A DNA stretch of 64,000 nt. Origin: a virus. Lineage: Duplodnaviria > Caudoviricetes. The stretch is taken from the IMG/VR virus record IMGVR_UViG_2756170261_000003, positions 1-64,000 of that record; one strand, written 5' to 3'. The notes below the pieces were generated by a model. The model saw only the letters and a list, made by a program, of their open reading frames with translations. It was not told the origin of the DNA and did not search any database. The position numbers and the translations under genes were made by a program. Below, piece after piece: positions 16,004 through 30,728 of this stretch; position 1 is the first letter of the stretch, and every line of letters starts with the position of its first letter.

Positions 16004-16240
16004 TCAACATTCCTCACATTCGTCAATCAGGCGGGCGACATCGCTTGCACGAAAATATACACGCCGTCCAATCTTTCTCTTAAGTGGCCCCCATATCCGA
16101 GCAAATTCCGAGTTGCCTAACATCGCTACGCGCACCCCATCCCGACTACGTTTGAGAACATCTGACAGTTCATCGAGAGATAAAAGGATACCGTAGCGCT
16201 CAACCAACTGTTCTTCCGTCTTAGTTCTTGCAACTGTCAT
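16004..16240 (-). CDS. Excisionase/AlpA-like HTH DNA-binding protein
   Basis: LLSLDELSDVL...RKIGRRVYFRASDV; ATGA overlap with integrase stop. Confidence 0.75.
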   Translation of the reverse strand: MTVARTKTEEQLVERYGILLSLDELSDVLKRSRDGVRVAMLGNSEFARIWGPLKRKIGRRVYFRASDVARLIDECEEC

Positions 16241-17574
16241 GACTGCTCCTCCTTCGACATTTCTGCGTGCTTGGTCCCGGGCGGAATCGCGCGGTCCAGC
16301 ACCCGACGATGTCGATAAGGTTGGTACTTCCCCAAGCTAGTGCGTTCTCTTGCCTGATCAGTTGGGACTGGCACAATCTGTGATGCAACTCCCTCTAGAC
16401 TTGCTCCAACCAGCTCCTTACGCAAGTGCGCCACGCGCTCAGCGGCCTCCCGCACAGGGTTATCTTCAGCATGCACGTACCGCATGAACATGGCAGCTGT
16501 TTTATGCGCCGTCAACGCCATCCCGATTTTGACGGACACACCTGAGTTGGCGATGTCGGTAGCTGCTCGATGTCGGATGCCGTGCGTGCCAACATGGGGA
16601 ACCCCCGCACGCTCGAGAATTCGCACCCACCCGTTCTTATAGGTGCCCTCGGACATCGGCTGATCACCACGAAAGACACTCGGGCAGACATAAGGCGATC
16701 CTTTAATGCGCGGCGCCGAGGACAGAAGCTGATATGCATCTTCGCTCATGGGTTTGGAAATTTTCCCCGTCTTGCTGTCCGGCCACTCGACGCGGCGATT
16801 TTCAAGGTCTACCCATGCCCATTCCAACAGCCTGATCTCAGACATACGTGCTGCGAAGGAGAACTGCAGACGTATGCCCAAGGTCAGTAGCGGATGCTCC
16901 AGACCCTCCTGATCCGCACGATCCAGATATGCGTAGATGCGTACCAGCTCCTCATCGGTGATAAAGCGGGTCTTCCCCTTCTCTGGGTACATCGGTATAT
17001 GACGGCAAGGATTCGAGCCATCCGGACGATAACCCCAGACCTCCGCCATGTTAAGCATCTTGCGCAGGCATGCAAAAGCCCGGTTGATCGTGGAAGGGAT
17101 GCGCGAATAGGCGCGCATCATCTCGCTCACATCGGCGCGTGTCAGATCAGGCACCTTGATGCGGCCCAAAGTCGGAATGATGTAGCGATTGATATGGTCT
17201 TGGTAGGTCTGGACCGTGCTTGGCTTGTTGCGAGGCGTCGAATACTCCTCGATAAACTGCTTGCACAATTCCTTGACCGTCAACGCTCGGCGGGCCGCGA
17301 CTTTTGCCGCACTGGGATCGTGCCCCTTGCGAATATCGGCAAGCCAGTCCCGTGCAATTTCGCGCGCCTGGTCAACGGTCAACTCCCCAAAGCGGCCGAT
17401 GGTCGGCTTGCGACGCTCACCCGCATTTGTGCGATACTGAAGGGCAAATATCTTCTTGCCCTTGGTGGTGACTTTGCAGACAAAGCCAGGAACGAGCGTG
17501 TCACGCAGTTCGTAATCCTTGCCAGCCGCTGCAGCGGTTTCCACAACGGTTTTGGTTAGCTTCAAAATAGCCAT
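16237..17574 (-). CDS. Tyrosine integrase with N-terminal arm-binding domain
   Basis: Catalytic ARMSE, SKTG, HGIRH, AHK, RY; GGAGG RBS; adjacent to tRNA fragment. Confidence 0.93.
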   Translation of the reverse strand: MAILKLTKTVVETAAAAGKDYELRDTLVPGFVCKVTTKGKKIFALQYRTNAGERRKPTIGRFGELTVDQAREIARDWLADIRKGHDPSAAKVAARRALTVKELCKQFIEEYSTPRNKPSTVQTYQDHINRYIIPTLGRIKVPDLTRADVSEMMRAYSRIPSTINRAFACLRKMLNMAEVWGYRPDGSNPCRHIPMYPEKGKTRFITDEELVRIYAYLDRADQEGLEHPLLTLGIRLQFSFAARMSEIRLLEWAWVDLENRRVEWPDSKTGKISKPMSEDAYQLLSSAPRIKGSPYVCPSVFRGDQPMSEGTYKNGWVRILERAGVPHVGTHGIRHRAATDIANSGVSVKIGMALTAHKTAAMFMRYVHAEDNPVREAAERVAHLRKELVGASLEGVASQIVPVPTDQARERTSLGKYQPYRHRRVLDRAIPPGTKHAEMSKEEQS

Positions 17575-17749: not shown

Positions 17750-17802
17750 CTCAAAATCCCCCGCCGCAAGGCGTGCCGGTTCGATTCCGGCCCCGGGCAC
17801 CA
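17750..17802 (+). tRNA. 3' half of tRNA-Leu(CAA): att duplication, not a complete tRNA
   Basis: CTCAAAATCCCCCGCCGCAAGGCGTGCCGGTTCGATTCCGGCCCCGGGCACCA has anticodon loop, long variable arm, T-loop and CCA; 5' half missing. Confidence 0.88.
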
Positions 17803-17870: not shown

Positions 17871-17962
17871 TCTTGGGGACGCAATAAGCCGAAAACGGTA
17901 GAAATCTTCCTATGTGGAATATTTGAATGTCCCCAGGCTGTCCCCTATACTTGTCCCCAAGA
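17871..17962. repeat. TGTCCCC(A/T) x3 direct plus one inverted copy, candidate prophage integrase arm sites
   Basis: 17928-35, 17939-46, 17952-59; TCTTGGGGAC (17871-80) is the exact reverse complement of 17953-62. Confidence 0.55.
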
Positions 17963-17982
17963 TCACTACAGGGGCCGTCAAA

Positions 17983-19104
17983 ATGGCATCATATGAACAG
18001 CGCGGATCATCGACGCGCGCCGTGGTACGCCTGCCAGGCGGAGGGAAAAAAACCAAGACTTTCGACACCAAGCGCGAAGCGCAGGCGTGGGCGGAAGGAA
18101 TGGAGAAGAAAAAGCTCATAGGCACGCTCACGTCCAGCAAGTCAATAACGGTCGGCGACCTCTTCGAGGCCTACATGCCCATAGCCGAAAAGGAAGACGG
18201 CGGGCGCTGGAACAAGCTTCGGATCATGAAGTGGCTGGAAGACAGGATATTGTGCAAAAAGCCCCTGCCCGAGGTCATTACCCATGACATTGACGAATGG
18301 ATTGTCCGGCGGCTGGATATTCCGAACGAGCAAACCGGAGAGCCAATATCTGGCTCTACAGTGAACCGCGAACTGAACCTCATGAGCGGCGCTTTCGCCT
18401 ACGCCATCAAGACGCGCAAGTGGATAAAAGAGAATCCCTGTCACGGGGCGAACCGCCCGGAAGACAACCCCAGCCGGCGCAATAAACCGCTTCTCACGGC
18501 AGATCAGATCAAGGAAATCCGAATCACGACCGGGGTTGATGCAGATCCGAAGCTTGAAACCATCACGGCCCGGGTTGGGGCAACATTTTTGCTCGCCCTT
18601 GAAACGGGAATGCGCTCGGGCGAGATACTGCGGCTTAGGCCTGAGGACTACCAAAAGAAGAAGCGCACCGTCCACGTCCGGGCCATTGAAAAAGGCGGAA
18701 GAAAGGGGGCCAGAAGCGGCAGGAACACCACCACGGCAGCGCGCAACGTTCCCCTGACGGCCAGGGCAATCGAGCTGCTAGACCTGCTTCTGAAAACCAT
18801 GCCGGCGGATCAAAAGCCCCGCCCGGAACTTGGGTTTTCGTACCCGCCATATATAGTTGGCCTCAACGACAGGCAGCGCGACGCGAACTGGCGCAAGGCG
18901 CGCGACAAGACCTCTATCGAGAACCTGCACTACCACGACACCAAGCATGAGGCCGCTACCCGCCTTTCTAAGTTCCTCGACGTGCTGGCCCTGTCTCACG
19001 CCATCGGCACAAAAGACCTGCGGCTGCTGCGCGACACCTACTACAACGACGACGCCGAACAGGCCGCATCGCTGCTTCCTGAACGGCTCGCGATTCACGC
19101 ATAA
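17983..19104 (+). CDS. Prophage tyrosine integrase (Rci/HP1-like)
   Basis: MASYEQRG start; TVNRELN, LALETGMRSGE, HYHDTKHEAATRL, DTYY. Confidence 0.88.
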   Translation: MASYEQRGSSTRAVVRLPGGGKKTKTFDTKREAQAWAEGMEKKKLIGTLTSSKSITVGDLFEAYMPIAEKEDGGRWNKLRIMKWLEDRILCKKPLPEVITHDIDEWIVRRLDIPNEQTGEPISGSTVNRELNLMSGAFAYAIKTRKWIKENPCHGANRPEDNPSRRNKPLLTADQIKEIRITTGVDADPKLETITARVGATFLLALETGMRSGEILRLRPEDYQKKKRTVHVRAIEKGGRKGARSGRNTTTAARNVPLTARAIELLDLLLKTMPADQKPRPELGFSYPPYIVGLNDRQRDANWRKARDKTSIENLHYHDTKHEAATRLSKFLDVLALSHAIGTKDLRLLRDTYYNDDAEQAASLLPERLAIHA

Positions 19105-22591: not shown

Positions 22592-23244
22592 TAGGACGGC
22601 TCCTTTTTTGCGTATTGCTTGAACGGTGAAATTCGTGCGGCCAACATGGCCTTGTTTTGGGGGTCGCCATCCCACGGGATTTTCCAGCCGAGAACCACCT
22701 CAAGGCATCGCTGGCCGTAGAAATACCATTGCCACTGAAAGAGCCATGCCACGCGGCCACGCCCGTTTACGGCAGTCCACCAGCTAAGGCAGGGATAGCC
22801 GCTATCCCACTTGTCGTCTTCGTCGCGGTGCCTGATGACCTTCTTGACGCCGGTTTGATCGAACCCAACAAGGCGGGCAAAGCCGTAGGCCGGGTTGCGC
22901 CAGAGCCATGCAACGCGGCAGACGTAGCGAAACCACGACTTGCTGTCGTAGTCGGCCTGGGTGAATGATGCAAAGCGCTTGATGCCCCGATACTTGCCGC
23001 TGTACCACCACGCATCGGCGCAATCGTCATGCGTGGAAAAAAGGCGGAACAGCGGAATCAGGAACTCGCGCATCTTGCCCGGGAACTGGCTTGGGTAGCC
23101 GGTCGTAGCATTCTCTTCGGCCATGACAACAAAGCACGGGAGCGCGATGATTGGGCCGACGATGAACGTCAGGGCCTTCATCAGCACCAAGAACAGGTAG
23201 CAAGGGATGAAGCGAATGAATGAGGCAAAGAGTGCGCGAGACAT
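22591..23244 (-). CDS. Hypothetical phage protein (Trp-rich, N-terminal TM)
   Basis: 217-aa ORF with WLWRNPAYGF motif, coupled to holin. Confidence 0.7.
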   Translation of the reverse strand: MSRALFASFIRFIPCYLFLVLMKALTFIVGPIIALPCFVVMAEENATTGYPSQFPGKMREFLIPLFRLFSTHDDCADAWWYSGKYRGIKRFASFTQADYDSKSWFRYVCRVAWLWRNPAYGFARLVGFDQTGVKKVIRHRDEDDKWDSGYPCLSWWTAVNGRGRVAWLFQWQWYFYGQRCLEVVLGWKIPWDGDPQNKAMLAARISPFKQYAKKEPS

Positions 23245-23257
23245 GATTTTTTGAGCC

Positions 23258-23638
23258 TTACTTTTTGGCGCGCCTTTTGCGCCGGGTGTTGGTATTATTG
23301 GCCCCCTTCGAGTGCCGAATCTGGCACTTTTTCTGTTCTTCGACCCATGCGTTCAAACAGTGATTGGTTTGCCCGTCCAGCACGAAAAACAGCCAGTCAA
23401 TGAATTTGACCAGTCGCCCGTAAATGGCCTTGTCTCGCATTCGCCAGCAGCGCGAAGAGAAAACCTCGTCTTCGTCGCCGCCGGCGGCCACGTTGCCAAG
23501 CTGATCAAAGCCAACAGCCAGACGCCAGCCCCGCAGGCCCGAACCGAATACCGCCGACAGCGGTATTGCGGCCAGAGACCACAGAGAGACCAGCAGGCAG
23601 GCCAGCCAAATGAGCATCCAAGCCGCTACCTGCCTCAT
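23258..23638 (-). CDS. Hypothetical phage membrane protein
   Basis: FDQLGNVAAGGDEDEVFSSRCWR...IDWLF..NHC. Confidence 0.7.
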   Translation of the reverse strand: MRQVAAWMLIWLACLLVSLWSLAAIPLSAVFGSGLRGWRLAVGFDQLGNVAAGGDEDEVFSSRCWRMRDKAIYGRLVKFIDWLFFVLDGQTNHCLNAWVEEQKKCQIRHSKGANNTNTRRKRRAKK

Positions 23639-23640
23639 GA

Positions 23641-24258
23641 CTACGCTCCCATCTGTTCATCAAACAGCGCCTCGAAGGAAGGCACGGCCAGAACATCGTC
23701 ATGCGTTTCGGCTGCATCAAGCAGGTCTTCGACGCGCTGGCGGATGCCGATGATTCCGCCCGAGGCGACGGCGTACTGCTCGGTCTTCTGCAGGATGCGG
23801 GTCGCCAGGTCTTCGCGGCCCACGCTGCGCGACGCGGCAAGCGCATCAATCAGCGGCGTGCTTGCCGTGGTGGGGTTGTTGATAAGGTCTTCGGCTTCCT
23901 TGACCTGCTGGGGCCAACTGGACACCTCGCCCTGGGGGTAGCTCTTGGACAGCAGCGCAAGGAAGCGCTCCGCCGCCTGATTGGCCTGGGCCAAGCGTTC
24001 GCCCTTGGACTGGCTGATGATGGCTTCATCGCTGGCTTCCAGTTCCAGCATTGCGACAAACTGGGTTTGCGCCGAGTCGCAGGCGGGAATGGTTGGCACG
24101 CCGCCCTTGGGCTGAACGTCCACGAAGTAGCCGGATGCTGAATAGTCGGTCGGAACCGTCCACACGCGGACTACGGCGTCTTTCGCCAGCTTGGGCAGTT
24201 CCTGAATCTGCTCACCATTGGCAAGCAGGACGTGATTTTGAATGGTGATAGCGTTCAT
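23641..24258 (-). CDS. Tail fibre assembly protein-like
   Basis: YPQGEVSSWPQQVKEA...TPLIDALAASR...GIRQ; located after the fibre/DGR cassette. Confidence 0.65.
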   Translation of the reverse strand: MNAITIQNHVLLANGEQIQELPKLAKDAVVRVWTVPTDYSASGYFVDVQPKGGVPTIPACDSAQTQFVAMLELEASDEAIISQSKGERLAQANQAAERFLALLSKSYPQGEVSSWPQQVKEAEDLINNPTTASTPLIDALAASRSVGREDLATRILQKTEQYAVASGGIIGIRQRVEDLLDAAETHDDVLAVPSFEALFDEQMGA

Positions 24259-25289
24259 GGTGCATAGCTCCGGGTGAGGGTAAAGTCAGAAAGGACGCCG
24301 GCAACCGTATCGGCGGCCTGGCAATGCTTTGCGTAGGCCAAGAAACTGGCTACGCGGGGTTGGATATAGTCGAGACCGACGATGCCGGCGCGGTATTGCT
24401 TCGCAAGCTTGCGGAACGCGATACGCGCCTTTTTGATGTTTCGCTTGCGCGGCAACATGTGCGTAGACCAGGTTCGATAGCCGGCGAAATCGACGCCGCG
24501 CGAAGCCGGGAAGTAGCTGGTCTTCGGGTTCAGGCGCAGGTTGAGCGCTTCGACTTCATCGGCCACAAAAATCAGGATCATTTCGGCGGCCCGCTTGTTG
24601 GGCGCAACGATGATGAAATCGTCCATGTAGCGCACGTACATGCCGATGCCGGCGTAATCCGTCACGGTATGGTCGAGCTGATCCAGCATGATGTTGGCTG
24701 AAAGCTGACTTGTGAGCGCGCCAACAGGCAGGCCCACGCCGTCATCGTGGCCGTAGGCCGCCGTGATCGTTCGCCACAGATTCAGCGTGTCGCGGCATGA
24801 GATAACTTTCTCGATGGCGCGGAACAGAATCGCATGATCAATGCTGGCGAAATACTTGCTTATGTCCGCCTTGATGACGTACGGATGCTCGTACCGGCGC
24901 TGGGCCTCGCGCAGCATCTTTTGCAAAGCAAAGACGGCGCGCTGTGCGCCCTTGTCGTGGCGGCAGGCGTAGCTATGGTTGATGAACCGTTTTTCGAATA
25001 GCGGCTCCACCACGCTGAACAGGGCATGATGAACAATCCGATCCTTAAACGGCGGGGCCTGAATGTTCCGCTGCTTCGGCTCCATGACGCGAAACTCGCG
25101 CGCGATGCCGGGTTGCCATGACTTCCAGATCAGGTGGTTGTGGATATTGATCAACCGCTCTTCAAGGTTTGCGCTGAACTGCGAGACCTCGCGGTGATAC
25201 CTCTTGCCCATTCGGGCCGATAAATACGCCTTCCAAAGATTATCGAAATCAATCACACTGCTGTACAGATTGTTGTACGTCTTTGCCAC
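24255..25289 (-). CDS. brt: DGR reverse transcriptase (likely GTG start 25289; alternative ATG 25319)
   Basis: FKDRIVHHA, KADISKYFASIDH, GLPVGALTSQ (DGR GxxxSQ signature), YVRYMDDF, GVDFAGY. Confidence 0.93.
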   Translation of the reverse strand: MAKTYNNLYSSVIDFDNLWKAYLSARMGKRYHREVSQFSANLEERLINIHNHLIWKSWQPGIAREFRVMEPKQRNIQAPPFKDRIVHHALFSVVEPLFEKRFINHSYACRHDKGAQRAVFALQKMLREAQRRYEHPYVIKADISKYFASIDHAILFRAIEKVISCRDTLNLWRTITAAYGHDDGVGLPVGALTSQLSANIMLDQLDHTVTDYAGIGMYVRYMDDFIIVAPNKRAAEMILIFVADEVEALNLRLNPKTSYFPASRGVDFAGYRTWSTHMLPRKRNIKKARIAFRKLAKQYRAGIVGLDYIQPRVASFLAYAKHCQAADTVAGVLSDFTLTRSYAP

Positions 25290-25475
25290 TGGTGAACCTT
25301 GGTGATACTTGTGTTGCATAGGTGCCACCAGCCACGTTCCCGCTGGTATCCCGGTACTTGCCGCTGGTGACTTTTTATCTTCGTCGCGCCGATGGCGGCG
25401 CGTCTGGACAACCGCTCCGAAGGATAGGTACTGGAATGCGGCCCGTGAGCCGCAAGCTTCTGACCGTGAAAATCG

Positions 25476-25596
25476 TTCGCGAGGCGAGCGCCGATGTTCG
25501 TGTTCGAGTTGGACGCGGGGTTGTTGAGGTTCAGGCACCACAGCCCCGCATTGGACGCGTTCGTCCAATTCCCGCCCACAATCGAGAAAAACTCGC
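25476..25596 (-). repeat. DGR template repeat (TR)
   Basis: 121-bp copy of VR; 9 AAY codons; mismatches to VR only at TR adenines. Confidence 0.95.
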
Positions 25597-25620
25597 ACTA
25601 TCAAGCGATTGCCCATACCG

Positions 25621-26022
25621 CTATCCCGCCGATCTAAGCCAGCCACCAACCATGCGGCCAACTTCATTGACGTGATTCATCCACGTTGCATACTTGTGCG
25701 GGTTGATGTATTCCAAGCGCAGGCTCTTGGTGAGCCATTTGCGCAAGACTTCCACCTCTACGTCCAAATCCTGCAACGTGGTTTTTTTGTGATACCGCTT
25801 CCATCCCACAATCGTCAGGCGCTGAATGATGTTCATCGACGCTTGAATCTGCGAACACAGCAAATGCCGCTCTATCCGTGGATATTGCTGCAATGCCTTA
25901 TGCGTGTACGTTTCCAATTCCTCAAGCTTTGCCAACAGTGCTTCATGCGGCGTTGGCTGCTTGTGAGATTTGGATTGGAGCGGGCTTTCGCCCGCCCCTT
26001 CGTGACTCAAGGGGCTAGACAC
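25621..26022 (-). CDS. avd: DGR accessory variability determinant Avd
   Basis: YPRIERHLLCSQI, KKTTLQDLDVEVEVLR, EVGRMVGGWLRS; located between VR and TR. Confidence 0.9.
   Translation of the reverse strand: MSSPLSHEGAGESPLQSKSHKQPTPHEALLAKLEELETYTHKALQQYPRIERHLLCSQIQASMNIIQRLTIVGWKRYHKKTTLQDLDVEVEVLRKWLTKSLRLEYINPHKYATWMNHVNEVGRMVGGWLRSAG
25980..26015 (-). other. DGR target-recognition hairpin(s) downstream of VR
   Basis: GCGGGC-GAAA-GCCCGC (25995-25980) and GCCCCTT-8nt-AAGGGGC (26015-25994). Confidence 0.7.
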
Positions 26023-26023
26023 A

Positions 26024-28597
26024 TCACACCTTCGCGAGGCGAGCGCCGAGGCTCGTGCTCGAGTAGGACGCGGGGTTGCTGAGGTTCAGGCACCACAGCC
26101 CCGCAGGGGACGCGTTCGCCCAATTCCCGCCCACAAGCGAGAAAAACTCGCCGGCGCTGTTGAAGTATTGGTAGTCCGGTGCCGTGGCGTCGGTGTTGGT
26201 GGTGGGGCCTGTCTTGGCGATGAACACATCATCCAAGTCGAACCCTTCGCCCGAGGCGTCCATGAACGTAGTCGGGTAGGTTGCGCCCGTCATGTTCGGC
26301 GGATTCTGTCCGGTGGGAATCCATGAGCGGTTGCCGTCGCGATCCCACAGGTGAACCACGCCGTTTACCAGCTTCAAGCCATCCATCCAGCCCCAAACGT
26401 TGCCCCACAGGCCAGTAATGCCCCGATAGGTCGCCTGCATTACGTCAGCGGCGTCCACGTTGGCGGCGCTGCTGGTGTTGACGCGGCCTTGCCCGGTCTT
26501 CGTCTGGCTGTCCATCGTGGCGTTTTCGACCAAGTACAGCCACTGGATGGCGCTCCACATGTAGACGTTCCACAGGCCAAAGCCAGAGACGCCCGACACG
26601 TTGCGCGCTTGCGCGTCAGCCTGGAACTGAGTCAAGGTGCGGCTGACAGTCGGCAGTACGCCAGGCTTGGAATCCAGCTTGCCGCCGGTCATGCTGGCCT
26701 GATACTTGCCTACATAGAACTGGTCAATATCAGTGCCGTAATGGCGGAACGCGGGGTGCAGCGTGTAGCCTTCCAGGGCTTGGTCAGAGATCCACCATGC
26801 CGTTTTGCCGTTGTTCGCACCGCCAGAAATCACAGCCTTGCGGATATAGAACTTCGGTATCTTCATCATCGTCTGACCGTCGATCAGAACTTCTTGGATA
26901 CCGCCCCAAATCGGGTGAGAGTTGAAGAAAGAAGCGCCAGGCGCAGCAACGGTATTGCCGTCTTCATCGACGTAGCCCCAGGCCCCGCCGTTTCCGCCCG
27001 TTGTCAGCAGCACCACGCCGGAGACGTTGGCGAACGCCGCCTTGGTGGTGATCTTCACTTCGGCGGAATACTCCGACCAGCCGCGCGCCGTGCCTTTGTG
27101 GCGGGCGCGAATGAAGTAGACCGTGCCGCCGGCTTCCAATTCGTTCGCGGGAACAACCCGGGAAAGCAGGTTTACCGCGTCTTCACCAGAATCCCAAACA
27201 GGGGTAGCCCATGTGCCGCCCGCTGCGCGGATTTGCCACTGGCTGGCCGCGTGCGTGTCTTCGCCGCCAACCGTTGAGAATGAGCCGGTTTGAAGCGTGG
27301 GGGTTTCGCCCACTTCGGTTGCATTGTTGGCGGGGGATACGAGAGTAGGAGCCGAAACATAGGAGAAAGACGAATCAGTGGTAAAGCTGGTGGCAGCGCT
27401 CCAGTCAGACCAAAGGCCGGACGAATCCATGACGCGAGCGCGGACGTAGTACGTGGTGTCAAGCTGCAGGACGGCGGCAGGCATCGAGTACGACAGGCCG
27501 GCGGCCTGGGTGCCGGAATCATGGAGAACGGCCAGGAAGTTCGAGGTCGTGGAGACTTGGAACTGAATGCCGGCCTGCTGGGTGCCGCCCGGGCTGGTGT
27601 AGTCGATGATGGCGAGCGTGGGCCGCTCCATGATCCCCGTCGCCCCATTGCCGGGCGCGGTGATAACGGGCATCGTCGGACGCATTTCGGGATTGGCAAA
27701 GCCGCCCAGGCCGGTAGCCGCCGACATGGAAACGATGTGCTGCAGAACCATCGGTTCGCCTTCCACGTCCACGCGCAGGTAGCCGTCGCCGCGCATAGGC
27801 AGGGCGTATTCGTAATCAGCGAAGCCGGCGGGAATATCGCCGCCCTGGCGACGCATCGACCACTTGCGCTCAACCCAGTTGGGATTCAGGCTGTCACGGA
27901 AGTACAGGCGCGCCAGGCCAGAGTTCAGCGTACGGCGAATGACGACCGCGCCGCCCTCTGCATCGCTTCCGATATTGACGGGCTTGGACAGCCAGATATT
28001 GCCAACATCCGCCTCCGCGCGGATCGACGGAATGATATTCATCGAACAGCGCGAAATGGTGCCGCCTTCGAAGTTTCGCGGCAGGTTGGAGTGCAGCCGC
28101 AAGCGGAACTCCGACAGGATGGCCTGGACGCGGATCAGAACCGAACCCGATTCATCGTGCAGCACGTAGTAATCGCCCACGGAAATACCGGCGGTCGATT
28201 CAACGTCTACGGAGTCGTCGCCGGAAACGCCTTGCGTGATGGCCGCGCCCTCGAAGTTGATCAGCGTGAAGCCCGGCCCCCACAGTTCCAGCGCAATGCG
28301 GTTATCACGGTACAGCCAATCGAGCGACACAGCCCGCTGAACGGATACCGCGCTGGTGCCGGAAATGCTACCGAATTCGGACTCCATCATGCCGAGGGCT
28401 TCGGCGATCTTGGTTACGCGCGCGCCGAGGGTAGGCTCACTACCGCGTGCCGTTTCGAGTTCGCTTTCAACGCCCTCTTGCCGACCATCAAGGCCCGCAA
28501 AGTTTTCGTCAATTTCAGCGTAGCGGGTATTCCAAAGAGCGGGAACCGCATCGGGTTCGTCATTTGGAATAGGCGTGATTTTTTCGTGGGTTAGCAT
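26024..28597 (-). CDS. DGR target: tail-fibre/receptor-binding protein with two FnIII/Ig-like repeats and C-terminal CLec (Mtd/FGE-like) domain
   Basis: PVITAPGNGAT / PTLVSPANNAT repeats; VGKYQAS, GLWGNVWGWMDG, GGNW...GARLAKV. Confidence 0.88.
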   Translation of the reverse strand: MLTHEKITPIPNDEPDAVPALWNTRYAEIDENFAGLDGRQEGVESELETARGSEPTLGARVTKIAEALGMMESEFGSISGTSAVSVQRAVSLDWLYRDNRIALELWGPGFTLINFEGAAITQGVSGDDSVDVESTAGISVGDYYVLHDESGSVLIRVQAILSEFRLRLHSNLPRNFEGGTISRCSMNIIPSIRAEADVGNIWLSKPVNIGSDAEGGAVVIRRTLNSGLARLYFRDSLNPNWVERKWSMRRQGGDIPAGFADYEYALPMRGDGYLRVDVEGEPMVLQHIVSMSAATGLGGFANPEMRPTMPVITAPGNGATGIMERPTLAIIDYTSPGGTQQAGIQFQVSTTSNFLAVLHDSGTQAAGLSYSMPAAVLQLDTTYYVRARVMDSSGLWSDWSAATSFTTDSSFSYVSAPTLVSPANNATEVGETPTLQTGSFSTVGGEDTHAASQWQIRAAGGTWATPVWDSGEDAVNLLSRVVPANELEAGGTVYFIRARHKGTARGWSEYSAEVKITTKAAFANVSGVVLLTTGGNGGAWGYVDEDGNTVAAPGASFFNSHPIWGGIQEVLIDGQTMMKIPKFYIRKAVISGGANNGKTAWWISDQALEGYTLHPAFRHYGTDIDQFYVGKYQASMTGGKLDSKPGVLPTVSRTLTQFQADAQARNVSGVSGFGLWNVYMWSAIQWLYLVENATMDSQTKTGQGRVNTSSAANVDAADVMQATYRGITGLWGNVWGWMDGLKLVNGVVHLWDRDGNRSWIPTGQNPPNMTGATYPTTFMDASGEGFDLDDVFIAKTGPTTNTDATAPDYQYFNSAGEFFSLVGGNWANASPAGLWCLNLSNPASYSSTSLGARLAKV
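26031..26151 (-). repeat. DGR variable repeat (VR)
   Basis: Encodes C-terminal EFFSLVGGNWANASPAGLWCLNLSNPASYSSTSLGARLA; 112/121 identical to TR. Confidence 0.95.
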
Positions 28598-28606
28598 TTA
28601 AGCTCC

Positions 28607-28987
28607 TTAATATCGCAAGGTGAGATTGATTCCGTACTGCTCGCCGTCTTCTTTGTGCTTGGGGGCAAACGTCTTGATGCCGCAAAGGTTTCCATCGGCA
28701 TCGACAAGCGCCGCCTCCGAAACGGCGACGCCGATCAGTTCATCGCCATCGACAAGGCCCTTTCCAGTGACCGAATAGAAGTCTTCTTGAGTGACGGCGG
28801 CCAGGGGCTTGCGCAGGACTTCGTGAAAAAGCGCGGTCGCCTCTTCATCCGGCGATTTGGCCGTCATGTCTGCGTTGTGGCCGCCGTCGCCAAAAGCCAT
28901 GAAGGCAATTGGCTTCATGACCATCAGGCCGGCGTTATGCGCGGCAAGCCGTCTGCGGTAAGCGTTTAGAGTGATGGCTTCTGACAC
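28607..28987 (-). CDS. Stand-alone tail-collar/fibre attachment domain protein
   Basis: MAFGDGG..HEVLRKPL..SEAALVDADGNL resembles myophage fibre N-termini. Confidence 0.6.
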   Translation of the reverse strand: MSEAITLNAYRRRLAAHNAGLMVMKPIAFMAFGDGGHNADMTAKSPDEEATALFHEVLRKPLAAVTQEDFYSVTGKGLVDGDELIGVAVSEAALVDADGNLCGIKTFAPKHKEDGEQYGINLTLRY

Positions 28988-28991
28988 AGCA

Positions 28992-30728
28992 TCAATCCTT
29001 ATTTACTTTGGTGATGAACATTTCAAAACCCATGTTTCGCGGGCCTCCCAGCTTCCAGTTGCCAGATAGAGAAAGCCGCGATTGCGGCGGCGGCAAAAGA
29101 ATGGGCGGGCGATTTGGAATGATTTTGAATTGCCCAATGCGCGGGGATTCGCTCATTTTCCGAACCCGCAGCGTGTGCCGGCCATCCAGGCGGAATCGGC
29201 CCACGCGATTGACTGCGCCAAGCGCCCACGAACCATCCAGGCGGCGCGGGCGGCGCGTCATCTTGATTGGCTTGGGGGCATCAACGTATTGCGGAACCGG
29301 ATCGGGCGGCAGCGTTTCCCGGCGGGCGACGTTGATCGTCACGTTCTTGATCATCGACAGGTTGCCGGACATGCGCCCAGGCTTGAGCCGCCAGCTTGAC
29401 TTACCGCCGACGCGCTCACCCAGCCGGAACGACCCGAACGGGGCCGGCAGCTTCGTATAATCGCCGTCAGTGCCAAGCTTCCACTTGCCGGAAGGCTCTT
29501 GCGTGATGACGCGCCCCGGCCACGGATAGCGCTGCAGCACGTCCTTGCGCATCTTGAGGTCGCCATAGAACTGCGTTTCCAGCCTGAACGCGGCGTTCAG
29601 CATGAACTTGAATACAGGCACAATCCGCGCAGGAACCACCGAACGGATGATCTGCATCAGGTTCGCCACCGAACGCACGTTGACGCTGAAATCCAGGGCA
29701 ATCTCTACGCGGCTGGTCAACACCATGCCGGACGTGTCGGGCATTCGGCCCTTTCTGGTTTCTTCCGCGCCCTCAATGCGCCGGCCAAGGCCCCATGTGC
29801 CATCCAGCTTTAAGCCAGGCTCCCCGACCTGATACAGCCACCAGGCGAAGATGGGTTTAGGCGCGTACAGCGCTTTGGAGTACGGGTATTCGCGATCCTG
29901 CCAAAGCTGGTTGACCTCGCAGGCATTGGGAAACAGCACTTGCAGGTACGTGCGCAGGAAATGCAGGCCCCGTCCCTGGCCGTCGCCGGCCTTCCAGGCG
30001 CGGTACAGATACCTCGTAGCCGATGATTCCCGGTCGCCCTGCATCAGCACCAGGCCATCGGAATTGATCGACCGGCGCACAAGATCGAGTGACCCGAGGT
30101 GCGCAGCGCCCAGCACGTTCGCGTCAAACACCTTGTCAGCGAACAGCTTGTCGTAGAGGTCGCAGAACAGACGGCGAAGATCGTCTTCAACCGGATTTGC
30201 GGCCGCACTTCGGCGCAGCGGTTCAAGCCCGGGCGCTTCGGCATTCTGAAAGCCGAACTTGCCGATGGGCCAAGTCACCTTGCCAAAGGCCAGCGCGCCG
30301 GTTTTCTTTTGCTCGATGATGGCCGCGCCATCAATAGCCGCCTCGCCCCGGGCGTCCATAACCTGACGGTCTGACGTGCGGCGCAGCTCACCATCAATAA
30401 CCAGCTTGCCGGATACGGACACGCTTGCGCGCGGGCCGCCGATCAGCGCATCAGCGTCGATCAGAAGCACCCCGGCGGCCTCAACCGTAGCGGCGTCGGT
30501 GGATACCGCAACCGAACCGACAACAGGCTGTCGAACGATGCCGTTTAGCGTCGATCCGCTGACATATTCGCCAACCCTGAACGATCCGAACGGGGCCGGC
30601 AGCTTTACCCGCCTGTCGGTGCTGTGCGTGTCGTGCGAACGAGTGGCAACGACGCCAGATACAACCGCTTGCGCGGTTATTCCGGCCAGGGCGGGCCGAT
30701 GCTTGGCGGCGACGTAGCCCTCATGCAC
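28992..30728 (-). CDS. Baseplate wedge/tail protein
   Basis: RGLHFLRTYLQVLF, IRSVVPARIVP; repeated KLPAPFGSFR and LDGxWxLG. Confidence 0.6.
   Translation of the reverse strand: MHEGYVAAKHRPALAGITAQAVVSGVVATRSHDTHSTDRRVKLPAPFGSFRVGEYVSGSTLNGIVRQPVVGSVAVSTDAATVEAAGVLLIDADALIGGPRASVSVSGKLVIDGELRRTSDRQVMDARGEAAIDGAAIIEQKKTGALAFGKVTWPIGKFGFQNAEAPGLEPLRRSAAANPVEDDLRRLFCDLYDKLFADKVFDANVLGAAHLGSLDLVRRSINSDGLVLMQGDRESSATRYLYRAWKAGDGQGRGLHFLRTYLQVLFPNACEVNQLWQDREYPYSKALYAPKPIFAWWLYQVGEPGLKLDGTWGLGRRIEGAEETRKGRMPDTSGMVLTSRVEIALDFSVNVRSVANLMQIIRSVVPARIVPVFKFMLNAAFRLETQFYGDLKMRKDVLQRYPWPGRVITQEPSGKWKLGTDGDYTKLPAPFGSFRLGERVGGKSSWRLKPGRMSGNLSMIKNVTINVARRETLPPDPVPQYVDAPKPIKMTRRPRRLDGSWALGAVNRVGRFRLDGRHTLRVRKMSESPRIGQFKIIPNRPPILLPPPQSRLSLSGNWKLGGPRNMGFEMFITKVNKD

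Follow-up and report, generated by a model that had tools for sequence, protein, structure and literature searches.

Since a reverse transcriptase gene and a long direct repeat lie beside a tail-fibre-like gene in the prophage described here, the question arises whether they form a diversity-generating retroelement (DGR) that varies the fibre and, if so, whether such an element has taken over from the invertible fibre segment of P1. The window, that is the whole stretch of DNA analysed, comprises 64,000 nucleotides (positions 1 to 64,000 of the IMG/VR record IMGVR_UViG_2756170261_000003; Duplodnaviria, Caudoviricetes), and the locus lies at positions 23,641 to 28,597. An earlier interpretation made from the letters alone (the sequence-only reading) had proposed a complete, apparently active DGR that diversifies the fibre of a P1-like myovirus. 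From our point of view, the locus is very probably best explained as a canonical, Avd-dependent DGR of an integrated myovirus prophage of about 79 kb in which one template serves two targets. The element is a genuine and complete DGR that diversifies the fibre tip and a second, distant gene, and it has probably been active recently. The P1 part of the question, as set out below, receives a different answer.

A repeat search of the window region gave a single 121-nt direct repeat (25476-25596 and 26031-26151) with 93% identity between its copies, the template repeat (TR) and the first variable repeat (VR1). The coding strand of all cassette genes is the minus strand, on which mismatches were scored. 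TR and VR1 differ at repeat positions 15, 33, 45, 46, 73, 87, 94, 100 and 102, and the TR base is an adenine in all of them; eight codons are thereby altered from TR to VR1 (I>L, T>A, N>P, N>S, N>Y, N>S, N>S and I>L). With an adenine content of the TR of 20.7%, nine of nine mismatches at adenines correspond to P ~7e-7. The coordinates of the repeats, the nine adenine-only differences and the codon changes given by the sequence-only reading proved exact on recheck, and its 23 internal TR adenines become 25 once the terminal AA is counted, with agreement on the nine AAY codons. Adenines occur in 14 variable codons of the TR, from which ~3.9e13 proteins are possible and from none of which a stop codon can be reached. 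VR1 ends 4 nt before the stop codon (TGA, 26026-26024) of an 857-aa protein, the first target.

A whole-genome search with the long open reading frame (ORF) spanning the TR located a third copy of the repeat, VR2, outside the window and at the end of a 399-aa ORF. All ten of its mismatches to the TR fall on adenines (P ~1.4e-7), the substitutions at these adenines differ from those of VR1, and neither VR1 nor VR2 has a single non-adenine mismatch over the 121 nt. Since the repeat with its GC tract occurs at just three places in the genome, one TR serves two VRs. Residues 529-856 of the first target share 49% identity with the 399-aa protein, which has no Pfam match even at E<=10 and no obvious signal peptide. 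Its gene belongs to the early/DNA-modification region and is translationally coupled to that of a Dam-type methyltransferase, whose stop its start overlaps; a C5 methyltransferase and RdgC are encoded upstream. The two-target arrangement recurs in the provirus records G401 and G402, the relatives whose whole records were searched: both encode a counterpart of the 399-aa protein (36-37% identical) with a remote third repeat inside its gene. In G402, this repeat departs from the TR at nine positions, each of them a TR adenine; in G401, the mismatches in the centre fall on adenines and the others lie at the repeat ends.

The reverse transcriptase (RT) retains both the YxDD box (YMDD) and the DGR-type SQ motif ([I/L]GxxxSQ, here VGALTSQ). 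It is 35.6% identical to Brt of BPP-1 across 93% of its length, 56-59% identical to the RTs of syntenic prophages and 98% identical to the RT of an Alcaligenaceae metagenome-assembled genome (MAG), and no deposited phage record holds an RT more than 42% identical to it. Since the similarity to related RTs sets in immediately behind the ATG at 25319, this codon is most likely the start, which gives a protein of 354 aa; the 470-aa ORF at 24255-25667 overruns the TR and was rejected. Avd is 46-56% identical to the Avd proteins of syntenic relatives. Its gene can be read from the GTG at 26022, which is preceded by AAGG seven bases upstream, or from a TTG at 25935; the ATG at 25946 is out of frame. 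The Pfam matches of both proteins (bAvd and RVT_1) agree with the order target(VR)-avd-TR-RT proposed before. The same genome contains a second RT (C15:90-1460, L002), a 456-aa ORF on its own 1.8-kb contig with 29% identity to the DGR enzyme, which could belong to a group II intron or a retron-type element.

The 15-nt GC tract GGCGCTCGCCTCGCG of VR1 is also present at 25479-25493 in the TR and in VR2, and these are its only three copies genome-wide. Both repeats finish with GGCGCTCGCCTCGCG followed by AA, and the flanks of TR and VR1 split right after ...GCGAA. The GC-rich tract and the divergent ends that had been read as the initiation of mutagenic homing (IMH) site and its counterpart IMH* are thus found as described. 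A hairpin or cruciform element follows VR1, and strand folding places a hairpin with a 9-bp stem and a GATA loop 31 nt downstream of the VR2 end; GC hairpins also occur at about the same distance after the VR in the relatives L013-L015. Target recognition in BPP-1 needs a downstream hairpin of this kind. By analogy, the IMH and the hairpins would act in the same way here. By the same analogy, the DGR RNA that serves to prime the synthesis of cDNA presumably includes the spacer that separates TR from RT; no Rfam family matched anywhere in 23000-29000, the spacer included.

The first target consists of an N-terminal attachment segment, a central immunoglobulin (Ig)-like region and a C-terminal variable domain. 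It matches the tail protein family PHROG 5302 over residues 573-855 (6.4e-40) and Ig_Rha78A_N (1.6e-8), and its residues 2-52 are 45% identical to the N-terminus of the fibre of Xanthomonas phage Rb1 (annotated as 'minor tail protein'), which stands at the equivalent place after the same collar gene. The gene follows those for a tape-measure-like protein, a baseplate protein (PHROG 1369, 3e-103), a 578-aa protein and a 126-aa collar-like protein, and it precedes the holin, endolysin and spanin genes. The collar-like protein is 48% identical to the 'tail-collar fiber protein' of Rb1 and is kept upstream of the target in relatives.

For the variable domain, no Pfam match was obtained even at E<=10, and an AlphaFold2 (AF2) model with an alignment of eight sequences reached a mean predicted local distance difference test (pLDDT) value of 40.6. 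With a 50-sequence alignment from a representative search, the pLDDT rose to 96.7, and Foldseek ranked the Thermus aquaticus DGR variable protein TaqVP at the top (5vf4, 1.8e-16, TM-score 0.58), followed by Mtd (1yu0, 2.3e-4), TvpA (2y3c) and the FGE/PvdO/EgtB group. Sequence comparison by phmmer likewise linked the last 328 residues of the target to TaqVP (PDB 5VF4; 10.1101/432187) with 1.3e-8. The domain family counts 2472 representative clusters at E<=1e-3, and the domain extends to the C-terminus of the protein in nearly all of the 150 matches listed. The structure prediction that the sequence-only reading had recommended as a check thus places the tip with TaqVP, Mtd and TvpA, as expected for a C-type-lectin (CLec) fold. 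The assignment as a fibre, also made there, is backed because of the gene position and the N-terminal attachment segment, and these findings together support the assignment of the 857-aa protein as a tail fibre with a predicted CLec tip.

Evidence for homing in the recent past comes from a sister contig (L045, from the Alcaligenaceae MAG, JAAZDZ010000041), which has the identical gene order, 92.9% nucleotide identity over 3 kb and the 98% identical RT. Its TR differs from the TR of the present phage by five non-adenine changes (positions 34, 35, 41, 62 and 63), all five of which are copied in the VR of L045, and this VR differs from VR1 at adenine-templated positions. Because the L045 VR tracks its five non-adenine TR changes while the VRs differ at adenine sites, the comparison points to TR-to-VR transfer since the split of the two phages. 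Adenine-only mismatches in the TR core are also found in more distant IMG/VR relatives, and in one of them, a metagenomic assembly (L015, IMGVR_UViG_3300001594_001560), the assembled VR has an N exactly at a TR-adenine position (L015:8279), which would fit heterogeneity of the VR in the sampled population. The element that had been called apparently active has, judged by the L045 comparison and the adenine-only VRs, probably acted recently.

Overall, the locus combines a DGR-type RT, an adenine-restricted TR/VR pair, a C-terminal VR in a CLec fold, IMH and IMH* with a hairpin, and Avd, so that every DGR-defining feature that can be tested in silico is present. By homology with BPP-1, RNA spanning the TR and the spacer would be reverse-transcribed by the 354-aa RT with Avd, the template adenines would be copied unfaithfully, and the resulting cDNA would replace the VR, guided by the GC-rich IMH and by a hairpin that closely follows each VR. 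The outcome would be a very large repertoire of receptor-binding tips, ~4e13 proteins, without stop codons. Present-day activity and a role in host range are likewise presumed.

One could argue that an ordinary duplication or a chance similarity accounts for the repeat and that the RT nearby is unrelated, for instance that of a retron or a group II intron. This is a generic possibility, and deposited phage records do often label such RTs as 'retron-type', but we regard it as practically negligible: all 19 mismatches over the two VRs fall on TR adenines (joint P ~1e-13, as the product of the two values), the RT carries the DGR-type SQ motif and adjoins Avd, and both VRs lie at the C-terminal end of CLec domains. 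On the adenine statistics, a chance repeat or plain duplication was rejected. More weight is due to the idea of a recently silenced relic, in which all parts are intact and the adenine-only pattern stems from past homing, with mutagenesis now absent, for instance through lack of expression or a subtle defect. The element is known from a single assembly, and decay does occur in the lineage: in the double-cassette relative G404, the TR of the orthologous cassette differs from the remote VR by 11 non-adenine mismatches out of 20. However, neither VR has accumulated a non-adenine mismatch, the reading frames and motifs of RT and Avd are intact, and the VR has followed five TR changes since the split from the 93%-identical sister phage. 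We hence consider a relic unlikely.

Several points nevertheless weigh against the two-target DGR. Ongoing activity in this strain is a presumption, the 857-aa protein is a putative receptor-binding fibre, and avd may start at GTG 26022 or at TTG 25935. L045 further shows one non-adenine TR/VR mismatch, T>G at repeat position 29 (L045:1004) beside an adenine-site change, which may be a sequencing error, drift or a rare non-adenine misincorporation.

The sequence-only reading had further suggested that this lineage may have replaced inversion-based host-range switching by retroelement hypermutation. The gene order does parallel that of P1 (sit-pmgA-bplA-16-R-S-U-[C segment]-cin-holin in P1; tape-measure protein-148-baseplate-139-578-collar-fibre-[avd-TR-RT]-205-126-217-holin-endolysin here), and the cassette sits where P1 has its C segment. 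That a P1-related lineage formerly had a Cin-type invertible fibre segment whose place the DGR took is, however, very unlikely. The Resolvase family PF00239 is found nowhere in the 100%-complete genome, with the same search positive in 12 of 14 control genomes, and P1 Cin and U gave a tblastn match in none of 39 loci of the baseplate lineage, which were collected from IMG/VR independently of the DGR with a baseplate-protein alignment. The relatives without a DGR have no invertase either: G087 has a plain fibre with a Tfa-type gene and Rb1 a fibre followed by an unrelated 218-aa gene, and the sole serine recombinase near the fibre of such relatives is of integrase size (632 aa). Moreover, 24-28% identity to P1 proteins is too distant for the ancestral state to be deduced. 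The proposed replacement is thus not borne out, and the position shared with the P1 C segment is an analogy, not a demonstrated replacement. The comparison of the locus across relatives that had been recommended (DGR versus invertase) revealed a DGR in about half of the loci with enough flank and a Cin-type invertase in none. That receptor-binding-protein hotspots contain either invertases or DGRs is an idea already published for other phage groups (10.1101/2024.10.15.618418).

Table 1. Features of the retroelement, its targets and the prophage end. Positions refer to the window unless a contig or locus handle precedes them.
Feature	Position	Strand	Description
TR, template repeat	25476..25596	-	121 nt; 25 adenines; 9 AAY codons; single copy
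VR1, variable repeat	26031..26151	-	9/9 mismatches at TR adenines, every one amino-acid-changing
VR2	C2:323788-323908 (window-equivalent 90921-91041)		third repeat copy, outside the window, 65 kb away, closing the 399-aa ORF
IMH GC-rich core GGCGCTCGCCTCGCG	26034..26048	-	3' end of VR1; from TR/VR1/VR2 alignments
Hairpin/cruciform element	25977..25998	-	9-bp GC stem (one G-T pair), GAAA loop, 32 nt past the VR1 end
TR-RT spacer	25320..25475	-	156 nt; assigned by position
DGR reverse transcriptase	24255..25319	-	354 aa; RVT_1 1.5e-20
avd	25621..26022	-	133 aa from GTG 26022; PF22296 bAvd 5.6e-22
DGR target 1, predicted tail fibre	26024..28597	-	857 aa; CLec variable domain at about residues 530-857
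399-aa target 2 gene	L006:5858-7057		carries VR2 at its end
Tail-collar-like protein	28607..28987	-	126 aa, just upstream of target 1; PF12571 2.1e-4 (below the curated cut-off) and PHROG tail-collar matches
orf205	23641..24258	-	205 aa; start overlaps the RT stop; PHROG 2618, function unknown
Tyrosine integrase	17914-19104	+	left prophage end
Tyrosine integrase, back to back with the first	16237-17574	-	left prophage end

The gene downstream of the RT, orf205, had been read as the putative assembly chaperone of the fibre, with the cassette inserted between the two. The position as such was correctly described: within 23258-26022, the block order fibre-avd-TR-RT-orf205-orf126 is present in this phage and in L045. 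In other relatives (L046-L059), the order is fibre-orf205-(orf126 start)-avd-TR-RT, and in all 12 distant named-genome relatives with the module a homologue of orf205 (35-44% identical) immediately follows the fibre gene, with avd behind it. The same holds for L013-L015 from IMG/VR, sometimes with the start of an orf126 homologue. Because orf205 is found directly 3' of the fibre gene in those relatives, it appears to travel with the fibre; and since the order seen here is limited to this phage and the 93%-identical L045, the location of the cassette between fibre and orf205 is, on comparative grounds, a local swap of two blocks and not the ground plan. The chaperone role is a lead: orf205 has no Pfam match even at E<=10, HI1402_helical is assigned to its Protein-Atlas neighbours (score 0.94) and Caudo_TAP to some of the structural neighbour clusters, and a tail-fibre assembly factor or chaperone is hence possible. 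Rb1 cannot be used for this call, as orf205 is not homologous to the gene that follows the Rb1 fibre.

The phage itself is a myovirus, with a tail sheath protein (PHROG 1036, 4e-122) and a tail tube. Its relation to P1 is distant, with 28% identity for the portal (Prt), 24% for BplA and 24% for Tub, and it has P1-type Dar antirestriction genes (Hdf-like, Ulx-like and DarB/DarA-like PHROG matches). As such, 'P1-like' applies to the virion and Dar genes, but the proteins are only 24-28% identical, the prophage is integrated in the chromosome and has a tyrosine integrase, and its nearest deposited relative is Rb1 (PQ569993; portal 65%, baseplate 59% identical). It lies between host genes within an 848-kb contig, with ordinary host genes past its right end; the plasmid-prophage lifestyle of P1 was accordingly not found, although no direct search for repA, parAB or cre was made. 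A direct repeat of 16 bp, CCGGCCCCGGGCACCA, occurs at 17787, between the two integrase genes, and at C2:329953, 79.3 kb apart, and the two copies are candidate att sites. CCGGCCCCGGGCACCA ends like the 3' end of a tRNA, yet ARAGORN detected no tRNA there. The right copy is closely followed, on its outer side, by an IS-type rve ORF. The host family is probably Alcaligenaceae, because the 98%-identical RT is found in an Alcaligenaceae MAG.

When one genome per species was scanned with an alignment of RTs, the module of collar, fibre, orf205, avd, TR and RT was recovered in 12 further named genomes, with fibres 42-51% identical over their full length and RTs 53-59% identical. Among these genomes are Gulbenkiania mobilis, Castellaniella denitrificans (twice), other Castellaniella, Bordetella hinzii, two Pseudomonas, Xylophilus and several Burkholderiaceae/Alcaligenaceae assemblies. 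Among the 39 IMG/VR loci mentioned above, 20 have 7 kb or more of sequence downstream of the baseplate gene; 10 of these have avd and RT beside the fibre, and the remaining 10 have different fibres and no RT. Scans of genome contigs and viral contigs with the single baseplate protein gave no match, and a sample of 400 genomes of the same order contained one baseplate homologue, that of G087, without an RT match. Tandem avd-RT pairs, with RTs ~42% and ~56% identical to the RT described here, were seen in L131, L132, L133, L135 and L160 (IMG/VR) and in L047 (an Azonexus MAG). In L160, the TR of cassette 1 pairs with the VR of the local fibre (11 of 13 mismatches at adenines), and the TR of cassette 2 has its only match at a remote site, within a 399-aa protein homologue, where non-adenines account for 11 of 20 mismatches, so that this second pair looks decayed or not cognate.

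A literature search combining DGR with 'P1-like' found no paper on DGRs in P1-related phages. The present analysis extends BPP-1-type DGRs to large, integrated, distantly P1-related and Rb1-like myoviruses of Alcaligenaceae, other Betaproteobacteria and Pseudomonas; the lineage context is new, and the parts and the logic of the system are already known. As the family forms a natural series (no DGR, one cassette, two tandem cassettes), it could be used to study how DGRs enter and move within receptor-binding-protein hotspots. The most interesting point is, in our opinion, the role of the conserved second, non-structural target. One could tentatively speculate that a single template is retained for the hypermutation of two lectin-fold paralogues whose tasks differ, namely the fibre tip and a non-structural, methyltransferase-coupled early protein, a possibility that we rate as somewhat doubtful. 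If it holds, the second target would not be a spare receptor-binding protein but a hypervariable binder, located inside the cell or on its surface, that acts in conflicts between phage and host or between phages, for example in superinfection exclusion or counter-defence. The two-target design could help to clarify what non-structural DGR targets do, and the closest deposited phage of the lineage has a culturable host.

Among the known systems, Rb1 shares the tail-collar protein, a tube-like protein (48% identical) and the N-terminal segment of the fibre with the phage described here, and both are temperate with a lambdoid-type control region. In contrast, its 540-aa fibre has an unrelated tip and is followed by the 218-aa gene and the large serine recombinase; no match to the variable domain was found in Rb1, and no reverse transcriptase is annotated there. 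The C segment of P1 with Cin and the G segment of Mu with Gin resemble the present locus as devices for host-range variation after a constant part of the fibre, at the end of the baseplate-fibre operon and before the lysis genes. They differ in that two alternative tips are exchanged by site-specific inversion and not by retro-mutagenesis; a cix-type system, an invertase or a U homologue was found neither here nor in the relatives (by the genome search with PF00239 and tblastn over the 39 loci).

The closest solved relative of the variable domain, both by sequence and by fold, is TaqVP, which like the fibre tip has an FGE-type CLec domain with a C-terminal VR, but belongs to a cellular DGR without phage-fibre context and is only ~19% identical. 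With regard to the two targets, the best parallel is the DGR of Quimbyvirus, in which one CLec target belongs to the structural module and the other to a distant gene cluster that is non-structural and related to defence (Benler et al. 2021, PMC8008677); in the present phage, the second target follows C5 and Dam-type methyltransferase genes. Quimbyvirus belongs to a different phage group with a Bacteroides host, and its RT is split over three frames, whereas that of the present phage is a single ORF. The prototype, finally, is the DGR of BPP-1 (mtd-avd-TR-brt), and the BPP-1 cassette architecture claimed by the sequence-only reading holds for a complete element: the order target(VR)-avd-TR-spacer-RT, the VR at the extreme 3' end of the fibre gene, the adenine-only pattern on AAY codons, the GC-rich IMH with a GAAA-loop hairpin after the VR, the CLec tip and a theoretical diversity of ~1e13 are common to both, and the host family is probably the same. 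Mtd is less close to the variable domain than TaqVP, and BPP-1 is a 42-kb podovirus with one target, whereas the present element resides in a 79-kb myovirus prophage and serves two targets from one TR.

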